From assembly GCA_965248265.1 (NCBI GenBank), contig CBDFJF010000002.1:2048001-2112000 (forward strand): 64,000 bases of DNA, given 5' to 3'. How positions within the stretch are numbered: position 1 is the stretch's first letter; the number at the start of each line of letters is the position of its first letter. The position numbers and the translations under genes are program-made. The notes beneath the pieces are model-generated. The model was not told where the DNA came from, did not search any database, and saw only the letters and a list, made by a program, of their open reading frames with translations. The stretch comes from Candidatus Latescibacterota bacterium (GTDB taxonomy: Bacteria; Latescibacterota; UBA2968; UBA8231). This document shows positions 1 to 20,221 of the stretch, in pieces.

Positions 1-450
1 TTCGCCATCGAAATGCCACCCTTGCGAAGGCGTCGAGAAGACATAGGTGAGCTAGCAGAGTTTTTTGTAGCACGATTTGCGGAACATCTGAATCAACGGC
101 CGCCCAAGATCTCCAGCGACGCGATGAAGATCCTAACTGGATATGAGTGGCCTGGCAACGTGCGCGAGCTGGAGCACATGATGCAACGAGCTGTCTTGTT
201 GGCGAAAAGTGACGTCATCCAGTTAGCCCATCTTCCTAGTGTTGCTGAAGAACAGATTGCAGATCAAGGTAGCCTCGTGATACAGCCTTGGGCTGCCCAC
301 GAGCGTCGCTATCTTGAGCAAGTTCTCGACCAAACAGAAGGTGTTATTTATGGTGACAACGGGGCGGCAGCCCTATTGGAAATCCATCCGAATACACTGA
401 GAAGCAGGCTAAACAAGCTTGGCATAAAGGTAAGAAAGAAAAAAGAGTAA
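1..450 (+). CDS. Sigma54-dependent enhancer-binding protein (Fis-type HTH), C-terminal part; begins before the window
   Basis: Frame is open from base 1 (FAIEMPPLRRRREDI). It contains YEWPGNVRELEH and a C-terminal HTH GAAALLEIHPNTLRSRLNKLG. Confidence 0.93.
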   Translation, partial: FAIEMPPLRRRREDIGELAEFFVARFAEHLNQRPPKISSDAMKILTGYEWPGNVRELEHMMQRAVLLAKSDVIQLAHLPSVAEEQIADQGSLVIQPWAAHERRYLEQVLDQTEGVIYGDNGAAALLEIHPNTLRSRLNKLGIKVRKKKE

Positions 451-746: not shown

Positions 747-1466
747 ATGCGCCCCAAAATCATCATTGCAGATAGTGAACTAGATTACTTGCCAAACGTC
801 AGGACTGGAATCCTGGCTGGCTGCCACTTCGTCCGTGCAGCAAGCGAAGACGATGTGATGACTGAAATGCATGCTGCACCCGGCGCATGTCTTCTCTTGA
901 TCGATTCTGGCAGAACCGAAGACAGTTCTTCAAAGCTGCTACGGAGAATCAAGGAGAAAGGGCGTCGCAGCAGCAAGGTGGTTTGCACTGCCGAGAATCC
1001 AACTGTTGAGCTTGTTATCGCCGCTTTTAAGGACGGCGCTTGTGATTTCATCCCAAAGCCAGCTTCACACAGCGAGGTGCTTTCCACCGTTCAAGCTCTG
1101 GTCCATTCCGCCGAAAGAATGCCGAGTTACTGGGCGCGTCGACTCGACGCATATCTGATTGACAACTTGTCCAATCCCGATCTCAACCTCGCATTCTTGC
1201 AAACACACTTCGCCGTGTCGAAGAGTTATCTTTCAAAGCTCTTCAGGTCTGAGATCGGCGTGCCATTTCGAGACCGGTTGATGAGATTCCGAATGCTAAA
1301 AGCAGCTAAGCTTATCGAAACTACGGACCATCCGATCTACCTGGTTTCATACCATTGTGGATTCCGAAGTCAATGTCGGCTTACTGAGGCATTTACGCGT
1401 TATCATGGACTCGGGCCTCGAAGATATCGTGAGGCACACAGATCTCAATTTTCTCGTTCAAACTAG
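747..1466 (+). CDS. Response regulator with receiver domain and AraC-type HTH (YesN-like)
   Basis: N-terminal REC-like features (IIIADSE, LLLIDSG, AFKDGACDFIPKP). C-terminal AraC motif (SYLSKLFRSEIG...RMLKAAKLI...CGF...FTRYHGLGPRRYR). Confidence 0.88.
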   Translation: MRPKIIIADSELDYLPNVRTGILAGCHFVRAASEDDVMTEMHAAPGACLLLIDSGRTEDSSSKLLRRIKEKGRRSSKVVCTAENPTVELVIAAFKDGACDFIPKPASHSEVLSTVQALVHSAERMPSYWARRLDAYLIDNLSNPDLNLAFLQTHFAVSKSYLSKLFRSEIGVPFRDRLMRFRMLKAAKLIETTDHPIYLVSYHCGFRSQCRLTEAFTRYHGLGPRRYREAHRSQFSRSN

Positions 1467-1581: not shown

Positions 1582-4500
1582 ATGATGAAACCCGAGGCTC
1601 GTCCATACCACAGGGGGATATGGGAGCACTTTACAGTGCAGGACGGCCTTCCAGACATGAAGGTCGAATGCGTGTACGAGGACTCAAGGGGGGTGCTCTG
1701 GGTGGGAACGCACAACCGCGGATTGGTCCGGTACGATGGGGATGACTTTCAAGCGTTTACTACCAGAGAGGGTCTTTCTGGAGACGGAGTTTACAGCATA
1801 ATTGAGGATGAATCCGGAACGCTATGGATTGCAACCGATCGCGGTTTATCAACTTTCGACCAGGAGAATTTCCACAATGTCGATGTTGGTGTTGACTGTG
1901 GTTTCCTCTGGGGTGTTGACAGGGATGCTAAAGGCAATTTGTGGTTCGGGCTGCAACGCCGGCCAGGTTTACCTCCTGCGGTCTGCCGGGTAACAGAAAA
2001 TGATTGCAACATTGTTGTTGTGGACGAGACCGACGAGGCATCAGGGACAAGCATCCATTGCATCAGGACCAATCCAGAGGGCAATGTTTGGGTCGGCGGA
2101 CAGTCGGGATTGTATGAAAGCGAGTTTGATGGACGTTTTTCCCCTCTGAAGCAAGAATGGGACGTTTACGTCGTCGGCGACATACTCCCGACGGGGTCAA
2201 AGGGTATGTTGGTTGCAGCATACAACGGTTTGTGGCGGTTGGGGGATGGGGCTGCTGAGCATTTGCTTGCTGAAAGCGATAGTGGTCCAGTTTCATTAGC
2301 CCACGTTGATGATGATGTCTTCATGGTTTGTACGTATGACGGGCGCTTGCTTCGCGTTCTTGGGGACGAGGTGCAGCTGATTCACCATCTGAATTCCGTC
2401 CACACGGGAGGATTTGTATTTGATAGTGAGGGAAGATTGTGGATAGGTACGTATGGGTTGGGTCTGTACTGCTATGACGAAACCAGGCTTCAGATAACGC
2501 GGATGGACAGTGTTTCACCCAGCGCCTCAGTTACCTGCTTGAACACCGACTCCCACGGCGAGTTGGTTCTGGGCACTCGCCAAGGGGTGTTTGCTCTTGG
2601 TGATGCTGGTTTTTCGGCTCTCCGTAAATCTGAAACGCTTTCGAATGCCGAGATTACAGGTGTGCTGTTCGATAGTTCAGACCAATTGTGGTTGGGTACG
2701 CGCAATGGTTGGATTTACAGCCGCATTCAAGGGACGCTCAACCAGCATGAACTCGATCCGGCATTCCTCGGTTACAGTATTGATGCATTGGTAGAAGACA
2801 ACCATGGGCGAATATGGTATGGATCTCGGAGTGGGCAGGGGTTCGGCTGCATAGCTGATGGGAAGTCGGAGTTTTTTCCACCTGGTGGGAATGCCAATTA
2901 CCCATCTTGGGTGCGGGCAATTGCACGAGATCGATTGGGTGGGATGTGGCTCGGTTCTGCTTCTCCAGGGGATTGGGATGGGATTTCCAGGTACCGGGAA
3001 GGGGAGTTTGAGCAGATAAACGGGTTTTCAGGAGCAGCAATTCTGTCTCTTATGGAAGATCGCGACGGACGTATGTGGGTGGGCACGAACGAAGGCTTGA
3101 CCTGCATAGATGAAGACTATCTCATGACCTTCACGCAGAGTGACGGACTCTCATGTGAGATTGTAACGTCAATATTTCAAGCACGGAATGGGGTGTTGTG
3201 GATTGGCACTGATGGGGGCGGAATCAGCTGCTACGATGGTCAGGTGTTTCAGGCTTGGCGCGTGCCTCACGATCCAGCATGTAACGTCATTCACGATATT
3301 GCTGAAGGGCGAGATGGTGTAATCTGGTTTGCATCTGAAGGTGGTCTTATAAGGTACGAAGCAGGCCAGACGAAACCCACTGTTGATGTCGTTGAAGTCA
3401 TCGCAGATATAGCGTACCCCGTGCCTTCAGAGGTGCAGTTCCCGACGACGGTTGGAAGGATGACATTGCGATTCCGTGGAGTTAGTTCTTGCGACAGGGC
3501 GGAACACCTTGTTTACAGATATCAACTTCATGGTTACGAGAATGACTGGCAGCAAACAAAGAGTGGTCAGGTTGAGTACTATAAGTTGCAGCCTGGAGAG
3601 TACGTCTTCTACGTCCAGGCGGTTGACAGAGATTTGAACTACTCCAAACGCGCTGAGGTGCAGGTCGTAGTAACTGAAGACCCTCGTATCGAGGCTCTGA
3701 ATGATGCTCTTCGTGCAGAGGGTGCCAACGGTGAGTTCATTGGGAATAGTACGGCGCTAAGTGAGGTCAAAAGGCAAATTCGGGAGGTTGCTTGGACCGA
3801 TTTGACAGTGTTAGTGCTTGGAGAGACCGGCACCGGCAAGGGATTAGCGGCACGCGCGATTCATGATTCCAGTGAGCGCAACGAGCAACCGTTTATTCAC
3901 GTCAACTGCGGGGCTTTGCAGCACGGGCTCGTCGATAGCGAGTTGTTTGGGCACGAACGAGGAGCTTTCACTGGAGCTATCACTAGAAAGCTAGGGAAGT
4001 TCGAGTTGGCAGACAAAGGGACCATTTTTCTCGACGAAATTGGTGACCTCCCACTTGAGTCTCAAACGAGGTTGTTGCGGGTCTTGCAGGATCGCTGCAT
4101 TGAACGGGTAGGAGGCACCCAAACACTATCAATTGATGTAAGGGTGATCGCTGCTACAAATCGAGATCTCGTTGGTGCTGTGCGCGGAGAGAAGTATCGT
4201 GCTGATCTCTATTATCGGCTGAACGTGTTTCCTATTCGAATACCTGCACTCCGGGAGCGACAAGAGGATACGCCTCAGTTGGCTGGGCATTTCGTGAAAC
4301 GTTTCGCTGCCCATTTGAACCAAACCGCTCCGCGCATCAGTGATGCTGCCATGCAAATGTTGATGTCATACAGCTGGCCCGGGAACGTGCGCGAACTAGA
4401 GCATGTTGTGCAGCGAGCAGTGATTCTGGCGAAGGAGCAACAAATTGAACCTGTTCATATCGGCATTGGTCCTCCAGCGACGATAGTTCAAAGTGAGGAT

Positions 4501-4690
4501 CTGGCAGAGTTCCTCCCTCTACGGGAGCACGAAAAGCGCTATCTGGCGAAGGTGCTTGAGTTTACGGGGGGGGGTAATCCATGGGAAGCGCGGTGCTGCG
4601 CAATTGCTGAATATCAAACCCACAACCCTGCGGAGTCGACTTGAGAAATTGGGATTGATGAAAACCAAGCGCGTAGCGAAAACCAACTAA
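1582..4690 (+). CDS. Sigma54 enhancer-binding protein with N-terminal two-component-regulator beta-propeller and Y_Y_Y domains; HTH frameshifted at a G9 tract (4566-4574)
   Basis: Repeated EDxxGxLWIGT blades, YRYQLHGYENDW (Y_Y_Y), GETGTGKG, ELFGHERGAFTGA, FLDEIGD, WPGNVRELEH. The main ORF ends at 4644. The HTH (GVIHGKRGAAQLLNIKPTTLRSRLEKLG) is in another frame ending at 4690. Confidence 0.92.
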
Positions 4691-4723
4691 CATAGTGGCA
4701 ACCCATCAGAGCCGAAGCATTTG

Positions 4724-4850
4724 TTACGATATGTCGTAAAATCAACATTCGTTACTATATATCGTAAGTTATTACGTAACATGTTGACATGTATTCAATT
4801 ACACTAGAAAAAGGGATGTATGCCATAGAGTAATTTACGACATGTCGTAG
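4724..4850. promoter_or_regulatory. Three palindromic putative bEBP binding sites (TTACGA-N4-TCGTAA)
   Basis: TTACGAtatgTCGTAA 4724-4739, TTACTAtataTCGTAA 4752-4767, TTACGAcatgTCGTAG 4835-4850, all in an AT-rich intergenic region. Confidence 0.78.
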
Positions 4851-4949
4851 TTCCCAGGGGGGCATAATACTACATCTCGCCTTGGTTAATATCGTATAAC
4901 TCATTGTTAATAAGTCGTTTGAGGTATTCCTCAGGCGACTTTTTTTGTT

Positions 4950-4965
4950 TGGCATACATCTTGAT
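4950..4965 (+). promoter_or_regulatory. Sigma54-like (-24/-12) promoter of the peptide operon
   Basis: TGGCATACATCTTGAT has correct spacing, with GA rather than GC at -12. Its distance from the third palindrome matches the first promoter. Confidence 0.65.
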
Positions 4966-5032
4966 ATAACACAATTAGACGAAGCGACATTCGCTAAGCG
5001 GTTAAGGCAGGTCCATCTCTTAGGAGGAAATC

Positions 5033-5251
5033 ATGAGTTTCAGATCGATAGCTGACTGGTGTGCGAAAGGTATGGCAGTAGTTGGTGCAGTTGCTTTGGC
5101 GGGCAGCGTTGGCGCAGAAGCATCCTCACATGAGGCGGCGTTGAGCCAAGACTCCTCGCTCTATGTGCCTCAAGCAGATGTCTCAGTTGGGTACGTGGTA
5201 GCAGGTGATTTCGATTCTGATGGCGGCGGGAATCCGCCTAAGCCTGAGTAA
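5033..5251 (+). CDS. 72-aa small protein with predicted Sec signal peptide; candidate precursor peptide, copy 1
   Basis: Strong RBS AGGAGG at 5022-5027. Hydrophobic stretch AVVGAVALAGSVGA-EA. Silent-biased divergence from copy 2. Confidence 0.88.
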   Translation: MSFRSIADWCAKGMAVVGAVALAGSVGAEASSHEAALSQDSSLYVPQADVSVGYVVAGDFDSDGGGNPPKPE

Positions 5252-5275
5252 CACTGAATCTTCTCGAATCTCACC

Positions 5276-5350
5276 GTGTTAGATGTTCTGCGCCTGCAGG
5301 TCGGGCGAAAACTGTTACGATTTTCGCGGACAGGTGGGTCCATCTCTTAG
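5276..5350 (+). pseudogene. Duplicated 5' remnant of the glycosyltransferase gene
   Basis: GTG-started MLDVLRLQVGRKLLRFSRTGGSIS* versus MLDALRQQVGRKLLRWG at 5609. Confidence 0.8.
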
Positions 5351-5359
5351 GAGGAAATC

Positions 5360-5578
5360 ATGAGTTTCAGATCGATAGCTGACTGGTGTGCGAAGGGTTT
5401 GGCAGTAGTTGGTGCAGTCGCTTTGGCAGGTAGCGTTGGGGCAGAAGCATCCTCACATGAGGCGGCGTTGAGCCAAGACTCCTCGCTCTATGTGCCTCAA
5501 GCAGATGTCTCGGTTGGGTACGTGGTAGCAGGTGATTTCGATTCCGATGGCGGCGGGAATCCGCCTAAGCCTGAGTAA
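5360..5578 (+). CDS. 72-aa small protein with predicted Sec signal peptide; candidate precursor peptide, copy 2
   Basis: Same RBS. Protein identical to copy 1 except M14L. Confidence 0.88.
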   Translation: MSFRSIADWCAKGLAVVGAVALAGSVGAEASSHEAALSQDSSLYVPQADVSVGYVVAGDFDSDGGGNPPKPE

Positions 5579-5984
5579 CCGACGGCTTAATCTTCTTCGG
5601 TATCTACCGTGTTAGATGCTCTGCGCCAGCAGGTTGGGCGAAAACTGCTAAGATGGGGCAGGCAGTTGCATCAATATTCGACGGCGCTTGATCTGCGGCG
5701 CGAGCATCTTACGGTCCTTGTCTTCTTCCACGGATACTCTCTCGCTCACACAATCAGGCCTCTCGTAGTCGCTCGCTCGTTGCGCGACCGAGGTTATCAG
5801 GTCGTTCTGGCCGGACGTGGACCTCATGCGGTTCGCATTCGGGAGGAAGGCTTTCGTGTGTACGATGTGGAAACGCTCCCGCAGGACAGGATGGATCAGT
5901 TCGTCGCTCGTGGCGACTACATGTACTATGACTATGAATGGGTGGATAGATGCGTTTGATACTCCCCCGGAAAAATGGACACCG

Positions 5985-6854
5985 TCAAGCAGCAAGTTTG
6001 GTTGAATGCTGCTCGAATGCTGCGGGTGTTGCGTAATCCAGGGTGGAATGACTCCTTTCTCGATTGTAAAAAATCTCGATGTAGTCGAACAGGCTGCGAT
6101 ACGCGGCCCGGTAGTTGAGCCAGTGTTCGTGGTAGGTCAACTCGGTCTTGAGCAGATGGAAGAAGGACTCAGCCACGGCGTTATCCCAGCAGTCGCCCTT
6201 ACGGCTCATACTCTGCACAAAGCCGTGTTTGCTGACCCAGTTAGTGAACGCGGTGCAGGCGTATTGAACGCCGCGATCGGAATGGATGATCAGACCCCTC
6301 GGCGGACGACGTTGAGCTACAGCCCGCTGCAGCGCGACCAGCGCCACGCGGTGATCCAGTGCCGAGCTCAACGCCCAACCCACCACGCGCCTGGAGTACA
6401 GGTCGATGACGACGACCAAATACAACCAGCCGCGACCGACGCTGAGGTAGGTCAGGTCGCTGACCCACACTTGATTGGGGCGCTGTGCGGTGAAATCGCG
6501 CTGCAAACGGTTCGGCGCCACCGCAAATCGATGTTGCGAGTTGGTCGTCACCTTGAAACGGCGTCGCACAATCGAACGCAGACCCAACACACGCATGCGC
6601 CGTGCAACGCGATTCTCGCCCACCTGCCAGCCTCCGTCTATCAGGGCGCGGGTGATCTTTGGGCTACCGGAGCGCCGCTTGCTGGCTTCAAACAACTTGT
6701 TGATCTCGACATCCAGTCGCCGAGTCTGCTCAGCTCGAGGACTGATCGGGCGCTGCTGCCAGGCGTAGAAACCGCTACGCGACACCCGCAGCACGCGACA
6801 CAACATAGTGACCGGGTACATCGCCTTCTCCACCTCGATGAAGCGATACCTCAT
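5985..6854 (-). CDS. IS3-family transposase OrfB (rve/DDE integrase core)
   Basis: PNQVWVSDLTY, LVVVIDLYSRRVVGW, HSDRGVQY, SMSRKGDCWDNAVAESFF, YIEIFYNRER. Confidence 0.97.
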   Translation of the reverse strand: MRYRFIEVEKAMYPVTMLCRVLRVSRSGFYAWQQRPISPRAEQTRRLDVEINKLFEASKRRSGSPKITRALIDGGWQVGENRVARRMRVLGLRSIVRRRFKVTTNSQHRFAVAPNRLQRDFTAQRPNQVWVSDLTYLSVGRGWLYLVVVIDLYSRRVVGWALSSALDHRVALVALQRAVAQRRPPRGLIIHSDRGVQYACTAFTNWVSKHGFVQSMSRKGDCWDNAVAESFFHLLKTELTYHEHWLNYRAAYRSLFDYIEIFYNRERSHSTLDYATPAAFEQHSTKLAA

Positions 6855-7138
6855 CTGGACTCGTTGGCGAAGAAGGCCGCCGCCTTTTTTAGGATATCTC
6901 GTTCCTGGGACACCCGCGCCAGCTCACGCCGCAAACGGCGGACCTCCTCGTCGTGATCACCTAAATGGCCGGTACCTGGGAAGGCTTCATCTCCTTGGAC
7001 CTTCAATTCTCTCTTCCAACGACTGATAATGCCTGCACTTAAACCCAATCGTTGCTCGACCCCTCGGGCCGATACCCCTTCTTCTGCGGCCAGGCGAATG
7101 GCCTCGAGCTTAAACTCACGATCATACTTGCGTGACAT
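6851..7138 (-). CDS. IS3-family transposase OrfA (HTH)
   Basis: MSRKYDREFKLEAIRL...LRRELARVSQERDILKKAAAFFA. GGAGG RBS. AAAAAAG -1 frameshift motif at 6884-6890 and ATGA overlap with orfB. Confidence 0.95.
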   Translation of the reverse strand: MSRKYDREFKLEAIRLAAEEGVSARGVEQRLGLSAGIISRWKRELKVQGDEAFPGTGHLGDHDEEVRRLRRELARVSQERDILKKAAAFFANESR

Positions 7139-9410
7139 AAGAACACCTCCTGCCAGAAATTTAACTTGGCGCTTCGAGGTGTCCACTCTCTTGGGGAAGT
7201 ATCAGTTCAGTCCGAGCGCCTGCTGCTCAAAATGCTCAAGCCCCAGTTCGTGATTCATGACATGAAGCCGACGGCGGCGATTAGCGCTCGCCTCGAGGGG
7301 GTCGATGACGCGAAGATAACTCAGGCTTACAACCAGCCGGGTTACTCAGAGGTCATCCATCTCCCAGACTGGTTTTCGACTGAATCTGGACCTTTCGACG
7401 AATACCTCGCTGATCATGCCTGTGAGGCGAGCGCACAGCAATCCTTCTGCATGCTGGCCGACATCCCTGAGTTCCACCCCAACGACGAGGAAGCGGGTGG
7501 ATACCACTATGTCGGTCCCTTACTCGATCAGCCCGCCGAACCCGAGCATGTAGAGTTACTTGATGCCGATTGGGACCAGTCGCTGCCTCTTGTCTATCTG
7601 ACGTGCGGAAGCAGCGGACGATCGCCCGACTATCTGGATGATTTCATCGCGGCGGTGAAAGACCGTCCCTTTCGGGTCCTGATCACGACGGCGGGTCGGT
7701 GGACTGATTCCAATGAGGGGGCGGCGTTGCCGCGCAATGTGCGCGTTACCGATTTCGTCCCGGGGGAGTGGGTTCTGAGGCGAGCACAGATGATGATCGG
7801 GGTCGTCGGTATCGGCTCGATCTACCAGGCTCTCGGAAATGGTGTTCCCGTAGCCGGCGCGCCGGAGCATCTCGATCAAGAGTACCACCTGAATCGTGTC
7901 GAAGCGCTGGGTTTGGGTGCCAAACTGGACCGTCGGGATCTCGGCACAACGACCCTCATCGATGCGATCGAATCCATGCTCGCGAATCTCAAGGGCTTTC
8001 AAAAGCGCTGTGCCGTTTTCTCGAGCGCCCTCAAGGGATTCGATGGCGCCAGTCGGGTTGCCGACCTGGTGGACGCTCATTTTATATCCCGGAACAAGGC
8101 CTATAGAGTTGACCAGTCCGAAATGGTGACGGCCGAGGAGTTCCTTCACTACCTGAATCACACAACCCCGCCGGAACTGTCACGGGAAGAGGTGAGCCGA
8201 ATTCTGCAGAATGGGTTGCGCAGCGGGATTCCACATTGCCGCCAGAGCAAGCGTATCTATTTCGACCATTTGGACAGCTGGAATTGGCTGTATGACAACG
8301 AGCCGGCCTTTTTCGAGGCCGATTATCGGGCCTCAGAGAACAAGCGGCGCCAGTTTTTCGCCAGCAACAACGGCCACGTGCGCTGCCTCGAGGCTTGGCA
8401 ACGATTCCAGGTGACTTACCAATACAGGATCTTCCCTCGACCGCCGGCCGAGTACAGGCCGCTGGCGCCGGGTCAGCGACTCAAGCTGTTCATCCCCTTC
8501 CCGATTCACAAACCCGGACATCAGATCGACGTTGAGCTCAAGTCGTGCTCATCCGAGGCCATGGTCTCCTCTTTCGTGCCTCAACTCGGATTCATGTATG
8601 GCTTCGAGAGCGAGGTGCACTCCGACTCCAGGCCGCTGGAGTTCAGTTACAGCTGTGAACTGAGTGTTCGTGAGCAGGGTACGGGCGAAGGAGAACGCGA
8701 GCTCACCGAAGCGGAGCGTCACGGCAATCTGGAAGTCGACCCCGAGATCGCGCGGCTTCCGGAAGTGATCCAGTTCAGGCAACGGTTGGCCCCGGCGGAT
8801 GATAGCCGAGCTGCCATGGCGCGCGCCATCTATGATGAACTGGCTCGGTCGAGGCGCTTTCGCAAAACGAAGGACCGCTCTCACAACATGCTTTACTGCA
8901 CCGCCTCGATTCTGAGCGGCAAGAGTGGCCACTGCGTGACGATGTCACGCGCCTACATGGCTCTGTGCCGCCTCGAGGGCATACCGGTCCGTGAGATCTC
9001 GGGTGCACTTGCAGGCTATCCGTCGGGAAATGGCGGGTTCCAGATGAAGACCTATTGCGAGCCGGTCTTCGGACATACCTGGGTTGAGATCTTTCTGGAG
9101 GGGGAAGGGTGGATGCCTGTGGAGTTTCATTCCATCGTCATCGGTGAGCAGGCTCTCACCAAGGGCAACGTAACCGACGACGTTACCAGGGCCCTGGTGG
9201 CTGAGAACTCAAAGCGGTATCACGACTACTACTTCGGCAATCTGGACAATCACCGCCTGGTGTGCTCGAACTCCGTCAAGCAGATCCCACAGGCCATGGT
9301 CGAAGACCCCACGTTGCCCCTCGACCACGATGATCATTGGTCCCCGGCGCACGATCTGCGCTATGACTGCTCGCTGCAGTTTACGAAGGTGTGAGCGCGA
9401 GAGGACAGGC

Positions 9411-10505
9411 ATGGTCGATATCAGTGTAATCATCCCGACATACAATCAAATGGAGCGGCTGCGTCTGGTGCTTTGCGGCCTCGAGAATCAGCGTCTGGAG
9501 TCGTCACGCTATGAGGTCATCGTCGTCGACGATGGCTGCACGGACGGTACACCGGAGATGGTAGCACAGCGCATGGCGGATGGGGATTGCGGGAATCTCA
9601 GCCTGATTTCTGCCAATCCGAAAAAGGGTCGCAGTGCGGCGCGCAATCGGGGGCTTGAGGAGGCCACGGGTGATGTGGTCGTATTCCTCGACGGCGACGC
9701 TCTTCCCGCACCGGATCATCTGGAGCGGTTCGCACAGGCGATTGAGGACCACGGTCCCCAATGCCTGCTGTGCGGCATGCAGTACAGCTTGCCCGAGCTC
9801 GAGTTTTTCAAGGATCCGCAGAGTGGGGCGCTATATCCGGATGTGCCGGTAGCCAGCGTCGTCAAGGATTACGTGGGCCTGCGTCGCCAGGAGCTCATCG
9901 TCACGGAGGAGATGATCATCCGCGATTTCGACGCCATCCGGTCAAGGGCCAAGGAGGGCGGCTACCCCTTCGAAGAATCGAAACGTCGTCAGGAGGAGGC
10001 ACGCGCGCTGCTGTACTCGCGACCCGATGCCGAGAGCACCTGGTTGGCTTTCATTCCGCACAACGGCGCCGGACCCAGACAGCTACTGTTGGAGGCGGGC
10101 GGATTCGACGAGGAGATCCCGTTCAGCGAGGGGTGGGAACTCGCCTATCGGATGCGGCGGGAGCACGGTTGTGACATTCGCTGGGTCCAGGCGGACACCT
10201 TCCATCTGTACCACTACCACCCGTTCCTGGACCCTGAAGGGGGAAAGCGCGAAGGGCAAATCCGCTATCGCGCCATCGAATACATGGTTGCCAAGCACGA
10301 TGATGAGCGCATCCGTCTTCTCTACTTCTGGTACGCCCACCTGTGGCCTGATTTCTACATCCCGCAGGAGGCCGTCGTTCAGGATCTCGTTCATTTCGAC
10401 CAACTGTACACCGATCTGTGCGCCGATACCTGGCGTCAGCACCAGGTGATTCTCGAGCACCATCCATCCCAATTTCTGAAACAAGCGATTGAGGCTGTGA
10501 TATGA
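9411..10505 (+). CDS. Glycosyltransferase family 2
   Basis: ISVIIPTYN, EVIVVDDGCTDGT, GRSAARNRG, VVFLDGD, GGFDE. Start placed at ATG 9411 after GAGGA. Confidence 0.92.
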   Translation: MVDISVIIPTYNQMERLRLVLCGLENQRLESSRYEVIVVDDGCTDGTPEMVAQRMADGDCGNLSLISANPKKGRSAARNRGLEEATGDVVVFLDGDALPAPDHLERFAQAIEDHGPQCLLCGMQYSLPELEFFKDPQSGALYPDVPVASVVKDYVGLRRQELIVTEEMIIRDFDAIRSRAKEGGYPFEESKRRQEEARALLYSRPDAESTWLAFIPHNGAGPRQLLLEAGGFDEEIPFSEGWELAYRMRREHGCDIRWVQADTFHLYHYHPFLDPEGGKREGQIRYRAIEYMVAKHDDERIRLLYFWYAHLWPDFYIPQEAVVQDLVHFDQLYTDLCADTWRQHQVILEHHPSQFLKQAIEAVI

Positions 10506-11728
10506 TCCAGACAAACGGTACTCTCAAGGAAAAACAGCTCATAGAGGCACTGGAGCTGCACGAAAAGGGGGATGACCGTCGCGGTCTGGCCCTCGACTGC
10601 TATCAGCTCGGCGTCATTCACCAGGACGGGGGCCGCCTGGAGAGCGCCGAGCGTCTGTTTCGGCGGGCCCTGGTGCTGTGCGAAGCGCTGCAGGACATCA
10701 GTGGCGCGGCGGCGGCGCATGCGCGCTTGGGTCTCTTGTTCGAGATCTACGGCGACACCGGCCAGGCGAGGTTCTTCCTGGAGGAGGCTTGCCGTATGCA
10801 CCAGGCCGCGGAGGACAGGTCCGGCCTGGCGAGCGACTACGGGTATCTCGGCTTTATCGACTTCATCGAGGGTGATCACGCGTCGGCGGAGGAGCGTCTG
10901 CGTGAGGCGTTGCGCATGAATGAGCAGCTGGGGAACGAGGCTCGCGCTGCCGAGGACATGGGGAACATCGGCAATGTCTACCTAGCCAAGGGTGATTTCG
11001 AGGAGGCGGAGACGATGTATCACAAAGCCCTGGCGCAATACGAGAAGCTCGGCGATCAAAAAGGAATGGGCAGTCTGTATCGGAGTCTCGGACGACTGTG
11101 GCTGGAGCGCGATGATCCCGAGCAGGCAAAGGTGTTTTTCGAGCTCGGTCTCGGGTTGCACACGCAAGTGGGCTGGGTGCTGGGAGAGGCGCTACAGCAT
11201 GATGGCATTGCCCTGGTGTACGAACGAACCGGTCTCGCTGATAAGGCGGAGGAGTGTTACCAGCGAAGTCTGGAACTGTTGCGCGAAACCGGGCATCGCA
11301 CCCAAATCGCTCGAGCGCAGACGCAGCTGGGTACTTTGCGCGCGACCCGTGGAGAGCTGGACGGAGCCTGTGATTCGTTCGAAGAGGCCCTCGAGCTTCA
11401 CGAGCAAATCGGGGATTACAGCGGCGTGGCGTACGCCTGCAGGCGACTCGGGACGATCTACTTGAATCCTGCCAACCCCGATCTCGAGCGCGCTGAGCAG
11501 ATGTACCAAAAGGCACTGGGGATTTATCGCGAGCAGGGGGACGAACGTGGCGAGGGAGCGGTTTTCTCCGGATTGGGAAATCTGGCAGCCCGTCGTGGCG
11601 ATGTCTCGCAAGCCATCGGTATGTGGAAGGTCGCATCAGAACGGTTCAAGAAACTTGGCATCGTCGATCAGGTAGAGAAGCTGGATATCGCCATGAAGCA
11701 GATCTGGTCGCGCGGCATGGTCGCGTAG
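10502..11728 (+). CDS. Tetratricopeptide-repeat protein (TPR_12-like, no other domain seen)
   Basis: Successive long TPR-like repeats (LGxxxxxxGxxxxAxxxYxxAL). ATGA overlap with the GT2 gene. Confidence 0.9.
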   Translation: MIQTNGTLKEKQLIEALELHEKGDDRRGLALDCYQLGVIHQDGGRLESAERLFRRALVLCEALQDISGAAAAHARLGLLFEIYGDTGQARFFLEEACRMHQAAEDRSGLASDYGYLGFIDFIEGDHASAEERLREALRMNEQLGNEARAAEDMGNIGNVYLAKGDFEEAETMYHKALAQYEKLGDQKGMGSLYRSLGRLWLERDDPEQAKVFFELGLGLHTQVGWVLGEALQHDGIALVYERTGLADKAEECYQRSLELLRETGHRTQIARAQTQLGTLRATRGELDGACDSFEEALELHEQIGDYSGVAYACRRLGTIYLNPANPDLERAEQMYQKALGIYREQGDERGEGAVFSGLGNLAARRGDVSQAIGMWKVASERFKKLGIVDQVEKLDIAMKQIWSRGMVA

Positions 11729-11743
11729 AAAGAAGAAACCATC

Positions 11744-13012
11744 GTGACCTATCAGGATTCTTCCGGAACAAGAGCCGTCGGATACCGTGAGGTGTTGCGT
11801 GTTGTCACGCGACTTATGCGGGATCAGATCTGGCGCATGGACCGTCCCGAGGACTGGCAACGTGCGCTCACAGCCCTGATAGACGCGTTGAAGGCGTTGC
11901 GTATTCCATTCGACAGTTGTGACCTGCACCATGTCGATTCGGCGAGTGAGGCTCCTGCCATTCCGCACCTGTTCTCGTGGAGAGACAATCGCTGGCGTCA
12001 AACGGTTGTGGGAGAGGACAGGGACACAATTTCACAGATATGGCGACGTGGAGAGCCCGACCATCGAACCGACGTCGCTGCCGTCGACGCGCACGACCAG
12101 GGCGACATTTTGAGGATGCGGCATGGCTATGCCATCCGCTCGGCACTCGACGTTCCATTCGCCAACGGAGTTCTGTCGCTCTACAGCAGCTCCGCAAACG
12201 CGTTCTCGGAACGCGATATCGAGATGGTTATCGAACTCGCCGAGGGCCTCGTTACCCTGTACAACCGTCTCGATGATCTCAAAGAGTTGGAGGCCAAGCA
12301 ACGGCAGGTAGAGCAGGCACAGCGACTCGAAATGGTGGGGCAGTTGGCAGCCGGCATGGCACACGAAATCAACAACTGTCTGTCCGTCATTCTGGGGCAG
12401 AGCGAGTTGCTGCTGCTGGACCAGCTCGATCCGGGCGTTCGCGAGAGTGTCCAGCTGATTTCCAAAGCCGCCGAGGGAACCAAGTACAGCTCGCGGCGAT
12501 TGTTGGATATGGCGCGAGGACAGGAGCCTGAGCGGGCGCCGATCGATCTGAACACCCTGGTCATGGAATCGGTCGAACTCGTGCGTCGGCAATTCAAGCG
12601 AGAGGAAATCGAGATAGTCGATGAACTCGGTGCGGGGCTACCGCTCGTCAACGGTGAGCCGACTCAACTGCAACAGATCGTGATCAATCTGCTGCAGAAC
12701 GGTCGGGACGCGCTCAGGGGCAGAAGGCGATCGGGGCTTATTCGAATTCGGACACGGCGACTCGACAACAGGGTGACGCTGTCGGTCGAGGATGACGGGC
12801 CCGGCGTTCCCGAGCGCATCCGTGATAGAATCTTTGAACCCTTCTTCAGTACCAAGGAGAAGGGCAAGGGGACTGGTCTCGGTTTGAGTATCTGTCAGAC
12901 CATAGCTCACAACCACAGTGGCTACTTAAGACTTGAATCCTCATCCCGGGGCACCTGCGTTGTCCTGGATCTGCCTATCGCAGACAAGGCAGCATTGCAG
13001 GCGTTCAACTGA
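11744..13012 (+). CDS. Cytoplasmic sensor histidine kinase (GAF-like, HisKA, HATPase)
   Basis: [14 protein letters not shown]-box, [14 protein letters not shown]-box, [24 protein letters not shown]. No transmembrane segment evident. Confidence 0.93.
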
Positions 13013-13170: not shown

Positions 13171-13345
13171 AATCCAGCTTCGGTCATTCGGGCGGCCTCC
13201 GCTCTGAGTCGCGCGCGCGATCGGCACGGCCTTCGACACGACCGCGATCGCCTCCTGCCGCGTGCATCAGTGACATCACACTCATAGCAATAGAAGACCT
13301 GGGTTGAAGATCGGTCTGCCGCAAGACTTCAGACAGTATCTCTCG

Positions 13346-15469
13346 ATGCGGGGTACGTCCGTCACGGGTGAAGAGACGGCCGAGCACCGGCCATTGACCG
13401 TACGTGCACTGGTGATTGGCACCTTCCTGTCGTTCTTTCTCGGTGTCGGCTCCAACTACGCCGATCTGGTTATCTCCGGCAGCTACATGACCCTCGATTT
13501 CAGCGCACCGGGGGCGATCTTCCTCTTCCTCGTGCTTGTCGGATTCCTGAACAGCCTGTTCAAGTTGACCGCCAAAGACTGGCGGATCTCGGGCGTTGTG
13601 TTCGCTGCCGTCGCCGCAGCTTACCTAGCACACTTCTATCCCTATGACGACATGCCCCTATGGTCACCGGGGGTTCTGTTCACCAGCTTCCTCGTCGCCT
13701 GCCTGCTCGCGAACACGATGCTGGCCGCCATGGGCAAGAACATGGCCCTGAATCGCTCCGAGCTGATCGTCGTTTACGTCATGCTCATCATCGTGGCCTC
13801 GTTCGCGACGATGGGACTGTGCGAGACCCTGTTGCCGGCAATCACCGGCGTCTTCTACTACGCCAATCCCGACAACAAATGGGCCGAGCTGCTGTTTCCG
13901 CACCTGCCCCTCGACATCATGCTGGACGACGGCAATACCAACCGGTCGTTCTTCGAGGGATTCGCGACACCGGAGTATCGCATACCCTACGAGCTCTGGA
14001 TCCGGCCGATGGCGATGTGGGGCGTGTTTCTCCTGGCTCTGTACGTGGCCATGGTGAGCACGGCCGTCATTCTGCGGCGGCAGTGGATGGACAGGGAGCG
14101 CCTGTCCTACCCGCTGGTGCAGACGGCGCAGGAGATTATCCGCGGCGAAGAGGACAGCCGCATCGTCAACCCGTTCTTCAAGAGCTGGGCGATGTGGTCC
14201 GGGGCATCGATTCCCATACTGGTAGGGTTGTTCACTGGATTGAACCGCCATCTCGGAGGTTGGCCCGTCATCACGACCGGTTGGTCGTTCCCGATTTACG
14301 GTGGCCAGAGCATCAACATGACGCTCAGCTTCGCGGTCCTGGGTTTTTCGTACTTGATCGGGCCCGATATCGCCATGGGTATTTGGGGATTCGCACTACT
14401 GAACAAAGTGGAGAGCATGATTTTCGTGAGTCAGGGCGTGACCAAGCAACAGGAAGTGTGGGCGGTGAAGGTCTCCGAGCTGATGAACTACCAGGGTCTG
14501 GGCGCTCTGATCGTGTTCGTCCTACTGGGACTGTGGGTAGGTCGAGAACACCTGGCCCAGGTGGGGAGGAAGTTCCTCGGTTTGTCATCCAGGCTCAGCG
14601 ATGACAACGAGATCATGTCCTACCGCGCTGCCGTACTGAGCCTGCTGTCGGGCGTGATCGTTATGGTTGGATGGTTCGCGTACCTGGGAACGCCGCTGTG
14701 GGCGAGTGTTCTCTTTATCGGATTGGCCTTTATCATCTTCATCGGTCTCTCGAGGGTGGTCGCCGAATCCGGCATCCCCGCTATCATCTCACCTATGGTA
14801 GCGCCAGACTTCATGGTCTACGGCCTGGGCTCGAAGCTGCTGGGGACTCAGGCCATCGCCAACTTCTCGATGAGCTACATCTTCGCCACCGACATCCGCG
14901 TGTTTTTGATGGGCATGTGTGCGAACGGACTCAAGCTCGTCGAGGGCATGACGAAGACGGCTCGTCGCCAGGTGTTCTGGGCGATCATGATCGCCATCGT
15001 CGTCGGCTTGACGGGCTCTCTGTACACCATCATGGAGGCGTCCTACCGCGACGGCGGCATCAACACCTCCAACTGGTTTTTTAAAGGTATGCCGATCATC
15101 ATCTACGAGACCGCGGAGGCCGGTCTTGAAGAGAGTAGCGGAGTGTACTGGCCAGGCATGGGCTTCATGACGCTCGGCGGCGCTGGCATGCTGGGGTTGA
15201 CCTGGCTGCGCCAGCGCTTCCTGTGGTGGCCCCTGCACCCGATCGGTTTCCCCATCATGGCCAGCTGGATCGTCGACTGGATGTGGTTCAGTGTGTTCCT
15301 GGCCTGGCTGATCAAGGTAATCATCCTGCGGTACGGCGGTGCCGAGCTGTTCAACAAGAGCCGGATTTTCTTCCTCGGGATCATCACCGGCCGCATGCTG
15401 ATCTCTGGAATGTGGCTCGTCGTCGACTACGTGACCGGCTTCGTCGGCAACAGCATTTTCTGGATATAG
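13346..15469 (+). CDS. Polytopic membrane protein, DUF6785/DUF6784-like (OPT-related putative peptide transporter); start uncertain (13304 or 13346)
   Basis: Many hydrophobic segments. Motifs ILRRQWMDRERLSYPL and RQRFLWWPLHPIGF recalled from this family. Confidence 0.75.
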   Translation: MRGTSVTGEETAEHRPLTVRALVIGTFLSFFLGVGSNYADLVISGSYMTLDFSAPGAIFLFLVLVGFLNSLFKLTAKDWRISGVVFAAVAAAYLAHFYPYDDMPLWSPGVLFTSFLVACLLANTMLAAMGKNMALNRSELIVVYVMLIIVASFATMGLCETLLPAITGVFYYANPDNKWAELLFPHLPLDIMLDDGNTNRSFFEGFATPEYRIPYELWIRPMAMWGVFLLALYVAMVSTAVILRRQWMDRERLSYPLVQTAQEIIRGEEDSRIVNPFFKSWAMWSGASIPILVGLFTGLNRHLGGWPVITTGWSFPIYGGQSINMTLSFAVLGFSYLIGPDIAMGIWGFALLNKVESMIFVSQGVTKQQEVWAVKVSELMNYQGLGALIVFVLLGLWVGREHLAQVGRKFLGLSSRLSDDNEIMSYRAAVLSLLSGVIVMVGWFAYLGTPLWASVLFIGLAFIIFIGLSRVVAESGIPAIISPMVAPDFMVYGLGSKLLGTQAIANFSMSYIFATDIRVFLMGMCANGLKLVEGMTKTARRQVFWAIMIAIVVGLTGSLYTIMEASYRDGGINTSNWFFKGMPIIIYETAEAGLEESSGVYWPGMGFMTLGGAGMLGLTWLRQRFLWWPLHPIGFPIMASWIVDWMWFSVFLAWLIKVIILRYGGAELFNKSRIFFLGIITGRMLISGMWLVVDYVTGFVGNSIFWI

Positions 15470-15473
15470 GCAG

Positions 15474-18400
15474 ATGCACGGCTCACCTCAACTCCTCTTC
15501 ATCTGCGTTGCAGCGTTGCTTTGCGGTGGGTGGACGAGCGCCCATGGGAAACAGCTGCGGTTGAAGGAGACGATCACAGCGCTGTCCACGCAGGGCTCTC
15601 GCCTGGCAGGGTATCCCGGCGACCGCTTCGCGGCCGACCTGGTCGAACGAGAGTTGATCGCCGCGGGCGTGGAAGGCGTCACGCGCGAGCCCTACGAAGT
15701 GGTCGTGCCCATGGACCACGGCGCTTCTCTCCGGATCCTGCGAAGCGACGGCAATTCACACTCCGATGAACCGAAGATTGAGCTCAAGTCGCTGTGGCCT
15801 AACCTGGTTCGCACCAATACCCTGGGTCCGCAAGGGCTGGAGGGGGAGCTGATCTACGCCGGCAACGGTGACTATGCCGATTTTAACGGCGAGCGAGTTC
15901 AGGGCAGCATCGCGCTCATGGAGTTCAACAGTGGTAAGAACTGGAAAAACGCTGCCGCGCTTGGGGTGGCCGCCGTCATCTTCATCGAACCTGAGGAGAC
16001 GTCCCGTATAGAGAGCCGGCGGAAGTGGAGTTGGGCTCCCGTCCACGTGCCTCGCTTTTGGATCGACCGCGCCTCCGGCAGTGCCTTGCGCCAGCGTGTG
16101 GAGGACGCAGGTGGGCTGCGGGTTCGCCTGCAGGCGCGCATGGACTGGGAACTCCACAAGACCTGGAACATCTGGGGAATCGTTCCCGGTACGGATCCAG
16201 AATTGGCCGACGAGTTGGTTGCCGTGCACGCTTACTACGACGGCATCTCGGTCGTTCCCGCAGACAATCCCGCCGCCGAAAGCGCGTCGAGTATCGCCGG
16301 CCTGCTCGAATTTGCCCATTACCTGAAGGCTCATCCTCCGGGACGGCCGGTGGCTCTGGTGGCGACCGGGTCACACTTTCTGGGACATAAAGGTGTCTTC
16401 GAATTCTTCGACCGGCATGCGCGCACCGACCCGCTCCTCAAGAGCAGGATGCCGAAGCGCCTGGTTGCCGATGGCGTCGATACCCGTCGTCTTGTAGCGG
16501 CCGTCCAGGAGCGGGGGTTGGACCTCGACTCGCTGGGGGTGGTCCTGCGTCCTGCGGCAGATTCACTGCAGGCACCGGTCTTCGACTCGGCGGACATCGA
16601 GAAGCTGGCCGCGTACGTGAAGCTGAGGCGTCTTGATCCCGACACACTCGGTGTCCCGCTCGAGCCAGACAGCCTCGCGATCGCTCTGTTCGTCGCTCTG
16701 GACCTGTCCAGCCGCAGCCGCCAGGTGGGCCTCATACACAGTGCACGGCAGCCGGAACACCGACGCATGTTCGTTCCCCTGGGACGCAGTTTCACGCGCT
16801 ACGCGGCGGCCGCGGCGACAAAGCACGGCCGCCGTCCCGACGGTCTCGTCAACCTGATCAGCCCGATCAAGGGACTCTCAGAGGATACTTACCTGTACTA
16901 CGGTTCGTATGTCGAAGCCGGTGAGGCGGCCAGGGATGTCGGCATCATGGCCCTCAATCTGGTGACCACGACCGATGCGCGCCTTGTCATCGATACCCCA
17001 CTCGACACTCCGGACAAGGTCGATTTCGTCAATCTTCAGCATCAGAGCGAGATGATCAACCAGGTCTTGCACAAAGCCCTGGGAGATCCCGATCTGTTCG
17101 GTCCGAACGCCATCGATAACAGGAAGAGTCACGAAAAGAACATCACCGATGAAAGGGCTACTATCGCCGGACGTCTGCGGTTGCTGCCCAAACGCGACGC
17201 CACTCCAGTCGACCCGGTGCCGAACGCCGTGGTCGTCATCGTCGACAATTTTTACGATGACTCGTGGCGACCTGGAGTGTACCTGGCGGATGAAGACGGG
17301 AATTACCAGGCGGGGGTGAGAAGGTGGAAATGCGAGGTGATGGGATTCCAGCTGGACGAGACCACCGGCGACATCACCTACGCGACCGACATGGGAGAGC
17401 GCGCTCAGGCGATCGGAAAGTTCGAGCAGACACCATCGAAGGCGGAAACGGTATGGACGACGATTCTGTTCCCGAGTGAGAGCATGGAGATCCACGAGCG
17501 CATTCACGCTCACCGCCATTGGACCTTCGGCAACTTCCATGAGGACATGAAGATCCTGGACCACAGGGGAGCCACGCCCCGTCAGTACGGTTTCGCTCTC
17601 GGGGACTACGACGAACAGATGATGGTCCTGTTCTCCACCTCGGGAGATTCGCTGCGTCTGGTAGATGAATCGATGGTGCTACTCAACAATGAGGGAGCCC
17701 GCGATGAGATCGAGGGGCAAGGCCACGGATTCGATCTGAGCACGAGCAAGATGGTGCCTTGGGCCGGCATGCAGTCGGCGGAGGACATGTGGCGTCTGGA
17801 CGAGCTGCGGATCGAGCGTATGCGGAGGTTCGCGATCGAGAATCCGCGCGTTGACGCGCTGCACGAACGCGCTCGCCTCTCGCTCGAACGTGCCACCGAG
17901 GCCATGGAAGCCCTCGACTGGGGGCATTATGCTAAATACGTCCGTGAAGCCCTGGGCTTCGAGTACCGGGCTTATCCTGACGTGAAGGGGACCCAGAGCG
18001 ATGTCCTGAACGGATTGGTGTTTTTTGTCGCCCTGTTGATTCCGGCGGCTTTCTTCAGCGAGCGTTTGATTTTCGCGTCGACGGACATCCGCCGGCAACT
18101 GACGTTGTTCGGTTTGATCCTGCTCGTGGTCTGGATCGTGCTTGCGCAGGTCCATCCCGCCTTCGGTCTGGCGCACCCGATCATAGTGCTGCTCGCGTTG
18201 ATGGTGCTGGTCACGGCTTTCTTCGTCATCTCCCTCATTGCCGGACGCTTCAACGGGTTCATGGATGAGCTGCGGGAGATGCGCACGGGCACCGTGGAGG
18301 GAGACATCAGCCGCGCCGGGACGGCCTACGTCGCTTTCATGCTCGGCATCTCCAACATGCGGCGGCGGGCACTGCGCACGAGTCTCACACTGGGGACGAT

Positions 18401-20105: not shown

Positions 20106-20221
20106 GGCGCAATCAAAACGCGAACGAAGACTGTCCTCGCTGTGCTCGGCCAGTCTTTTGGAGTTCGCTTCGCGAACTCCCGGGGTGAATTGGCTTGAAT
20201 AAGGTGCAATCAAAACGCGAA
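20099..20221 (+). repeat. 26-bp direct repeat of a gene start flanking a hairpin-rich 71-bp insert
   Basis: TGAATAAGG(C/T)GCAATCAAAACGCGAA at 20099 and 20196. Inner hairpins AAGACTG...CAGTCTT and GGAGTTCGC-ttc-GCGAACTCC. Confidence 0.85.

Follow-up and report, generated by a model that had tools for sequence, protein, structure and literature searches.

Past purifying selection on tandem copies of a small peptide gene next to a glycosyltransferase/transglutaminase-fold fusion gene in Latescibacterota

The stretch of DNA analysed here (the window, 64,000 nt of Candidatus Latescibacterota bacterium, assembly GCA_965248265.1, contig CBDFJF010000002.1) carries two head-to-tail copies of a gene for a 72-residue peptide, placed between a sigma-54 activator gene and a glycosyltransferase/transglutaminase-fold fusion gene. 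Both coding copies have been under purifying selection in the past, and sequence comparison shows the peptide to be a member of a real, small and so far unannotated protein family. We favour the reading, at a probability of about 55%, that sigma-54 would induce a pre-peptide, which enzymes from the same transcript would modify in the cytoplasm before its export, with the second gene copy raising the substrate dosage. The two genes and the units in which they are repeated are as follows.

5033..5251, + strand: peptide gene copy A, 72 codons plus stop, Met at codon 14 (M14)
5360..5578, + strand: peptide gene copy B, 72 codons plus stop, Leu at codon 14 (L14)
5010..5336, + strand: duplication unit 1, made up of the leader 5010-5032, copy A and an 85-nt spacer
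5337..5608, + strand: duplication unit 2, made up of a 23-nt leader, copy B and a 30-nt gap before the GTG at 5609

An earlier reading made from the letters alone (the sequence-only reading) had counted eight differences between the two coding copies by eye, and a codon-by-codon comparison reproduced this count exactly. Seven of the changes are synonymous as claimed, all at third positions (K12, V20, A23, G24, G27, S51 and S62), and the remaining one is the conservative M14L (ATG in copy A, TTG in copy B); residues 15 to 72 are the same in both proteins, so that the predicted mature parts are indeed identical. The dN/dS analysis that had been proposed was run by the Nei-Gojobori method and gave an omega of 0.042 (dS 0.146, dN 0.0061; S 52.7, N 163.3, Sd 7, Nd 1). 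The synonymous bias between the twins is beyond chance and statistically real (Fisher p 2.5e-4; binomial P of at most one non-synonymous change in eight, 3.2e-4). When the same 6 transitions and 2 transversions were placed at random, at most one replacement was obtained in 8.3e-4 of 100,000 trials. If one copy alone had drifted neutrally, the observed pattern would be expected with P 0.048. Six of the eight changes lie within the first 30 codons, a clustering that is not significant (p 0.06). At codon 14 itself, the peptide family carries Leu in 74% and Met in 14% of its members, and a second close pair of peptides (from loci L018 and L024) gave a pN/pS of 0.045/0.121. The twin genes serve as a natural built-in test that the small open reading frame (ORF) is read as protein. 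A coding product under purifying selection, as the sequence-only reading had argued, thus appears well founded on three independent supports, namely the synonymous bias, the conserved family, and the conserved Shine-Dalgarno site, sigma-54-type promoter and fixed gene neighbours seen in 9/9 loci.

The repeat unit is 327 bp long and spans the ribosome-binding site, the peptide gene, the intergenic gap and the beginning of the next gene. Since the shared leader, gene, gap and next-gene start are all repeated, one event copied all of them. The 23-nt leaders, with AGGAGG before both ATGs, are identical, and identity ends further upstream. The genuine GTG start of the glycosyltransferase/fusion gene lies at 5609, within the tail of copy B. 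Because the tail of copy B contains this true start, the tail of copy A holds a dead stub of the same gene; accordingly the spacer 5252-5336 carries about 16 codons of it, beginning with a GTG at 5282. The divergence after the stop codons, said to include indels, was found as described: the 85-nt spacer and the stretch after copy B differ by 13 mismatches and 6 indel events, in contrast to 8 mismatches and no indel over the 216 nt of coding sequence. Decay of the non-coding copy has been about as fast as synonymous change, whereas both coding copies were kept. The twin genes as such are an ordinary tandem duplication. An antisense ORF in the ORF list (5170..5343) also overlaps the twin-gene region.

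The family to which the peptide belongs became visible by profile search. A word-index search of 5.8 billion clusters returned, besides the cluster of the window peptide, only one 72-aa protein (62% identical), and a single-protein search of 60 related genomes gave marginal matches only, two of which (E 0.004-0.005) were to a 79-aa ORF with the same neighbouring genes. Exhaustive searching with an 11-member profile against 1.84 billion representatives yielded 37 proteins at E<=1e-3 and 15 at <=1e-10, and 36 of the 37 are 65-105 aa long. As surveyed with the profile across the phylum, the peptide gene is present in 8 of 168 genomes, this one included. All eight carriers fall in one family (7 of its 75 others) and in 6 of 49 genera, and this genome is the only carrier with two copies. 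Among the related loci, 36 of 43 are labelled Latescibacterota or Latescibacteria. To our knowledge, this phylum is without cultured representatives having genetics, and its small proteins are mostly unannotated.

Meanwhile, Pfam, NCBIfam and PADLOC gave 0 matches to the peptide, so the selected family is unnamed in these three resources; PADLOC on the cassette returned generic tetratricopeptide repeat (TPR) and kinase matches and nothing else. The best score in an ESM Atlas search was 0.77, which gave no lead, and Rfam over 4600-5700 had no match at E<=1. No FG-GAP domain was found in the 43 peptides at Pfam E<=10; the GDFDSDG of the peptide is reminiscent of an FG-GAP calcium loop, a likeness that Pfam did not confirm. 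The 1566-aa protein P0027, with 14 matched stretches, was rejected as an FG-GAP-like member, as it has no Pfam FG-GAP domain and is a simple Cys/Ser/Asp-rich repeat without DxDxDG, hence a low-complexity match. Locus L070, the sole one from a metagenome scan with the close-relative alignment, was spurious, being the antisense strand of an ABC-ATPase gene. Protein P0039 (E 6.5e-4) was left out of the peptide alignments.

The family alignment shows two conserved ends joined by a hypervariable linker: residues 1-30 and 49-72 have mean pairwise identities of 0.37 and 0.38, and the final six residues reach 0.52, whereas the value for the linker (31-48) is 0.09. At the N-terminal end there are basic residues and a short hydrophobic stretch, and small residues stand at AxA-like spacing. 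By hydropathy scan and regular expression, the N-terminus of the window peptide is divided as MSFRSIADWCAKG-MAVVGAVALAG-SVGAEA/SS, the slash marking the predicted cut, and the strict expression G[RK]xxx-small-x-small fits 30/43 members. No 19-residue transmembrane-like segment was found in the peptide. The conserved acidic C-terminus reads (S/G)-Y-V-x-x-G-D-x-D-x-D-G ... P-P-x-P-E at the very end, with Tyr in 93%, each Pro in 88-90% and a last-residue Glu in 88% of the sequences; 38 of the 43 members end in E, and 37 have a terminal PPxx[EQT]. The window peptide ends in ...NPPKPE with nothing after, and its predicted mature form has 42 aa, of which 7 are acidic (D/E) and 1 is basic (K). No conserved Cys column exists in the family alignment. 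A lipoprotein reading of DWC was rejected because the lipobox is absent and the Cys is not conserved.

The genes that follow the peptide genes are listed below, together with an insertion sequence (IS) that splits the first of them.

5609..5956, + strand: 5' piece of the fusion gene (GT1-glycosyltransferase/transglutaminase-fold), 116 codons, cut by the IS
5957..7204, - strand: IS3-family element, 1,248 bp, with orfA at 6851..7186 and orfB at 5985..6854
7205..9394, + strand: 3' piece of the fusion gene, encoding what remains of the GT-B domain, then a beta-sandwich and a transglutaminase-like core
9330..10505, + strand: GT2 glycosyltransferase gene (Pfam)
10502..11728, + strand: TPR protein gene (Pfam)
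11744..13012, + strand: cytoplasmic histidine kinase gene (Pfam)

A fusion gene of about 830 codons stands directly after the peptide gene in 9/9 loci, with 18-30 nt between peptide stop and fusion start (window and L018), and the order GT2-TPR-histidine kinase follows in all five loci that are long enough (L018, L020, L026, L027 and L042). The precursor beside a tailoring enzyme that is typical of clusters for peptides that are ribosomally synthesised and modified post-translationally (RiPPs) is thus seen in every one of the nine. By six-frame scan, the peptide gene was found neither at the other fusion loci, about 31 in number, nor elsewhere in the genome. The peptide family has a fixed partnership with an uncharacterised enzyme family, which comprises at least 182 clusters bearing generic names only.

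The 5' piece of the fusion gene alone has no Pfam match, and it aligns to the N-terminus of an intact 829-aa orthologue (HGYSLAHTIRPL ... YYD.EW.DRCV). Its 3' piece matches Transglut_core (5.8e-14), EryCIII-like_C (3.5e-8) and UDPGT (9e-7). In an alignment made without L059 (frameshifted), L057 and L060 (both partial), the sugar-donor motif and the triad Cys676, His723 and Glu739 are invariant in 33/33 fusion homologues. The N-terminal GT-B/GT1 part is nearest to transferases of the GtfB/GtfD/OleD/CalG type. The C-terminal half was modelled, at a pLDDT of 91.8, as a beta-sandwich plus transglutaminase core, with 3isr (a putative cysteine protease), TgpA and animal transglutaminases as best fold matches, while the listed matches of the GT2 model are glycan-extending GT-A enzymes. 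No transmembrane-like segment was found in the operon enzymes, the TPR protein or the kinase.

The element within the fusion gene has the features of the IS3 family: HTH_Tnp_1 in orfA and an rve DDE integrase in orfB by Pfam, ends reading TGATAC...GTATCA, and a 3-bp GTT target duplication at 5954-5956 and 7205-7207. The genome contains six copies, and the 3-bp duplication is perfect at 3 of them. Since all six are 100% identical, the insertion is recent, and a recent IS burst in the genome is suggested. The IS interrupts the fusion gene behind codon 116, and removing it with one GTT leaves flanks that read through in frame. A contig of run X5, which comes from a relative in a different sample and study (90-99% alike), joins 5953 directly to 7205 and is free of the IS. 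The split fusion gene is the only one of its family in the genome. Thus the system has recently been switched off here, through the IS split and also through a frameshift in the activator gene (see below) unless that shift is a homopolymer error. Because the enzyme gene is split and the activator frameshifted, the selection signal reports the past and not necessarily the present. The statement of the sequence-only reading that the product is kept in two doses therefore stands as to two selected copies and needs to be confined to the past. The insertion and the frameshift also show how quickly such accessory cassettes are lost.

Upstream of the peptide genes lies a regulatory region with the following features.

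1582..4690, + strand: sigma-54 enhancer-binding protein (activator) gene, with Reg_prop propeller repeats, Y_Y_Y, a sigma-54 AAA+ domain and an AAA lid
4726-4737, 4754-4765 (one mismatch) and 4837-4848, unstranded: three copies of the palindrome ACGAYATNTCGT, upstream of the promoter
4912..4951, + strand: terminator-like hairpin plus T run, 13-pair stem, directly before the promoter
4950..4964, + strand: sigma-54-type promoter TGGCAT-N5-TTGA, a pattern match with its -24/-12 elements, 83 nt ahead of the copy A ATG

The promoter motif TGGCAY-N5-TTG(A/T) is present 66-111 nt before the peptide ATG in 9/9 loci with DNA, its two elements being correctly spaced in the window, and no sigma-70-like site was found in 4600-5700. 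Copy B has no promoter of its own, and therefore both copies would come from one transcript. The hairpin before the promoter folds at -20.6 kcal/mol (z -4.98), and 0/200 shuffles were as stable; similar hairpins with a T run precede the TGGCA in L020, L026, L027 and L058. Being terminator-like, it may insulate the peptide operon from the activator gene. As for the palindrome, 11 strand-matches at 6 places were found in the window against 1.59 expected, a number reached in 0/100 shuffles. Exact sites number 7 in the 7.32-Mb genome, and 4 of these form two clusters within the window, both of them some 110 bp ahead of a sigma-54-like promoter. Similar palindromes occur upstream of the peptide gene in those related loci whose sequence was inspected. 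The copies of ACGAYATNTCGT are presumed to be upstream activator sites for the enhancer-binding protein. Palindromes, sigma-54-type promoter and propeller activator together make up a clear regulatory design for the family.

The activator was identified by Pfam (Sigma54_activat 1.7e-67, Reg_prop 3.3e-47, Y_Y_Y 4.1e-11), which found no receiver domain in it. Meanwhile, rpoN is present on contig C1 (Sigma54_DBD 211 bits, 494-aa frame). The activator frame is shifted in a G9 run at 4566-4574. HTH_8 has no Pfam match in this frame, and a Fis-type helix-turn-helix is readable solely in the overlapping ORF 4493..4690, while the intact activator orthologue in L007 reads GGVIHGKKGAAYLLGLKPTTLRSRL in frame. 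Since one G fewer at 4566-4574 would restore the helix-turn-helix frame, the shift may be either an assembly homopolymer error or a real, possibly phase-variable, frameshift.

Further regulatory genes were noticed in front of the activator. Over 117 residues, the product of a second sigma-54 activator gene, cut at its 5' end by the window (1..450), shares 50% identity with the C-terminal end of the first. Behind this gene come two palindromes with the core of ACGAYATNTCGT (501 and 583), then a canonical TGGCCC-N5-TTGCA promoter at 694 and a receiver/AraC-type regulator gene at 747..1466. The same receiver/AraC-type regulator precedes the activator in L026 and L027. This arrangement hints at a regulatory cascade or autoregulation.

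The fusion-GT2(-TPR) module also occurs without the peptide gene, at about 31 further loci. In some of these, the gene upstream encodes a protein of about 720 aa with FG-GAP repeats and a FlgD-Ig/type IX secretion system (T9SS)-type C-terminal sorting domain (L021, L025, L028, L029, L031, L032, L034, L054 and L060, about 2200-4480 in each); in the three such proteins scanned, FG-GAP_3 was present in 2/3 and the sorting domain in 3/3. Others have an upstream protein of about 310 aa (L023, L033, L035, L037, L038, L039 and L043; the one scanned was a DUF1573 protein), or different upstream genes. On a quick tree of 33 fusion proteins, which are related sequences and not independent ones, the type of upstream gene tracks the clades, and all 6 peptide-linked genes fall within a single one of three major clades. 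Other secreted-protein genes thus stand in the peptide's place, which fits a module acting on the product of the gene directly in front of it, whatever that product may be.

In three loci (L048 3871-4095, L056 3842-4105 and L055 3686-3838), the interval from an NtrC-type activator gene to the fusion gene contains a repetitive stretch with ORFs of the kind ...ISALTSPIRACISALTSPI..., which may be tandem DNA repeats or another repetitive peptide. In L059 (4501-6998) the fusion gene is interrupted, with two tblastn pieces and 20 stops straight through, a further case of module decay.

Taking these data together, we propose that a signal sensed by the propeller of the activator would lead to a single sigma-54-dependent transcript of pepA-pepB (copies A and B) together with the enzyme genes. 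In the cytoplasm, the GT1/transglutaminase-fold protein and the GT2 enzyme may then glycosylate and/or trim the conserved C-terminal part, and the TPR protein would perhaps hold the free PPxPE end of the peptide. Export through Sec, with the signal cut after AEA, would release a 42-aa acidic glycopeptide, and the second gene copy would raise the substrate dosage relative to the enzymes.

Several observations weigh against this proposal. Adjacency of the genes is the one tie between peptide and enzymes, and an invariant sugar-acceptor residue is missing from the family alignment (Tyr54 is present in 93%; position 53 is S, G or A). The Sec-like signal was called by hydropathy scan and regular expression rather than by SignalP, and 13/43 members, both window copies included, miss the strict expression. 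As the signal is Sec-like and the enzymes look cytoplasmic, any modification would have to come before export. Pfam and synteny revealed no RiPP-typical exporter or leader peptidase gene in the conserved cassette. Besides, the -12 element of the promoter is TTGA/TTGT where TTGC is usual. Finally, the cassette is broken here, and therefore its present-day function in this genome is doubtful.

A broader version of the proposal is tentative and, in our judgement, clearly below even odds. It holds that the peptides form a new class of ribosomal glycopeptides, in which the fusion, GT2 and TPR proteins would recognise the free C-terminal PPxPE as a handle and either trim or decorate the acidic D-x-D-x-D-G segment, with the sigma-54 propeller activator as switch. 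The module would then be a phylum-wide modifier of upstream-encoded proteins, including those of the FG-GAP/T9SS and DUF1573 genes behind which it stands in Latescibacterota.

The strongest competitor of the cytoplasmic-modification proposal, somewhat unlikely in itself, is that the exported peptide acts unmodified in the envelope or outside, for example as a signal or as an acidic metal-binding peptide, and that the co-induced glycosyltransferases serve another acceptor, such as a glycan, a lipid or a small molecule. The peptide may in that case feed back on the kinase/activator pair, both of which the cassette has of its own. A Sec-like signal on the peptide set against cytoplasmic enzymes would be readily accommodated, as would the likeness of the GT1 part to small-molecule natural-product transferases and that of the GT2 model to glycan-extending enzymes, and the roughly 31 loci where the enzyme module does without the peptide. 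However, the peptide gene is never apart from the fusion gene, either in the nine loci or in the six-frame scan, and the gap between them is merely 18-30 nt. The peptide-less modules, moreover, have another secreted-protein gene in the same position, and the strictly C-terminal PPxPE looks like a recognition handle.

Considerably less probable is a strict RiPP system, in which the N-terminus would be a leader cut by the transglutaminase-fold domain and the glycosylated core would leave via an unlinked exporter. The N-terminus is as conserved as the C-terminus (0.37 vs 0.38) and has specific residues (W9 in 67% and G24 in 98%) as a leader might; the invariant Cys-His-Glu triad and the cysteine-protease/transglutaminase-type fold would suit a leader peptidase as well. 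Several precursor copies are common in RiPP clusters. Nevertheless, the N-terminus has the classical n-h-c layout of a signal with AxA, and no lasso B protease was among the listed fold matches. Scans with Pfam and NCBIfam found no RiPP recognition element (RRE)/PqqD-like family or cyclase in the cassette, nor is a C39/ABC exporter present there. The sole RiPP match in NCBIfam was that of the TPR protein to HaaT, which at 129 bits against a cut-off of 1125 is far below threshold.

That the tandem pair is physically real was judged from Logan contigs of runs X1-X3, which are three runs of one sample, probably the source sample. The genome (7.32 Mb in 2 contigs) contains the peptide gene twice and nowhere else by six-frame scan. 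A 243-bp unitig identical to 5010-5252 (copy A, 0 differences) was found in X1 and X3, and a 243-bp unitig identical to 5337-5579 (copy B, 0 differences) in X2; the depth of each is about that of the flank, not half of it. A 9,599-bp contig of X1-X3 stops 30 nt into the shared leader, no contig bridging both copies is among those listed for the runs, and run X5 has no cover over 4600-5666. The depth of the spacer compared with the unique flank was 4.7-8.6 vs 4.7 in X1, 6.5-16.5 vs 17.6 in X2 and 10.8-17.7 vs 12.1 in X3. The claim that the pair is not an assembly artefact is thus supported by copy-specific unitigs and spacer depth, in contigs that are probably from the source sample only and do not bridge the copies. 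A merging of strain haplotypes of a single-copy locus by the assembler, for which the metagenome-type assembly with 4.4% contamination, the lack of a listed contig over both copies and the origin of the supporting runs in one sample, maybe the assembly source, might speak, is very improbable, given that the spacer 5252-5336 with its decayed stub can exist solely in a tandem form and is covered at flank-like depth, that both copy unitigs have about the full flank depth, and that the spacer has indels and 13 mismatches, unlike the neighbouring sequence, where the contigs match at 0 differences.

Glycocins such as sublancin (SunA/SunS) and glycocin F are small ribosomal peptides encoded beside dedicated glycosyltransferase genes, and similarly the peptide gene here adjoins glycosyltransferase genes and a glycosylated exported product would be expected. 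Glycocin enzymes are SunS-type GT2 proteins acting on Cys, Ser or Thr of disulfide-stapled helical peptides, which have double-glycine leaders and a C39-ABC exporter. By contrast, the present family has no conserved Cys and a Sec-like N-terminus, its adjacent enzyme is a GT1/transglutaminase-fold fusion, the GT2 model matches glycan-extending GT-A enzymes, and the cassette holds no C39 peptidase or ABC exporter. Cytoplasmic glycosylation before Sec export is known from HMW1C/HMW1, the GtfA-GtfB serine-rich adhesins and the autotransporter heptosyltransferases. Such systems resemble the present one in having soluble cytoplasmic transferases beside a signal-bearing substrate gene, with modification before export (as proposed here); they differ in that their substrates are large adhesins rather than a 42-aa peptide, and the enzyme here has what is predicted to be an extra transglutaminase-fold domain.

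The lasso-peptide B protease is a transglutaminase-like leader peptidase, and a transglutaminase-fold cysteine enzyme beside a short precursor gene is found here as well. In contrast to lasso systems, no cyclase and no PqqD-like recognition element were detected in the cassette (Pfam, NCBIfam), the best folds are 3isr, TgpA and eukaryotic transglutaminases, and the domain is fused to a glycosyltransferase. The topic of lasso B proteases comes up in PMC10885120 and PMC7533575.

The peptide gene is also grouped with sigma-54 activator, histidine kinase, TPR and glycosyltransferase genes, as in PEP-CTERM systems, where small secreted proteins of environmental bacteria are clustered with the same kinds of gene. 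However, neither a transmembrane helix nor an Arg cluster follows the PPxPE of the present peptide, whose carboxyl end is free, and the sensor of the activator is a propeller rather than a receiver domain. In NCBIfam, PEP_resp_reg scored 315 bits (cut-off 502.6) and PEP_TPR_lipo 30.8 bits (cut-off 312.2), both below threshold. PEP-CTERM/exosortase systems with PrsK, PrsR and PrsT are covered in PMC1569441.

On the defining features that were tested, the peptide qualifies neither as a glycocin nor as a lasso peptide or PEP-CTERM protein, and it belongs to no named class. It is best placed, as a variant, among systems of precursor peptide plus tailoring enzymes. Within the partial texts returned by a full-text literature search, neither a glycosyltransferase/transglutaminase fusion paired with a peptide nor the peptide family itself was the subject of any paper. 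If the peptide is indeed the substrate, the cassette would represent a new route to glycosylated peptides and offer a handle on the role of a widespread GT1/transglutaminase-fold module.

Downstream of the cassette (13304-22897), the window encodes a DUF6785/DUF6784 multi-pass membrane protein, a 1543-aa protein with PA, M28 and FtsX domains and a 900-aa family-less multi-pass protein, an order of genes that is not kept in the related locus L017.

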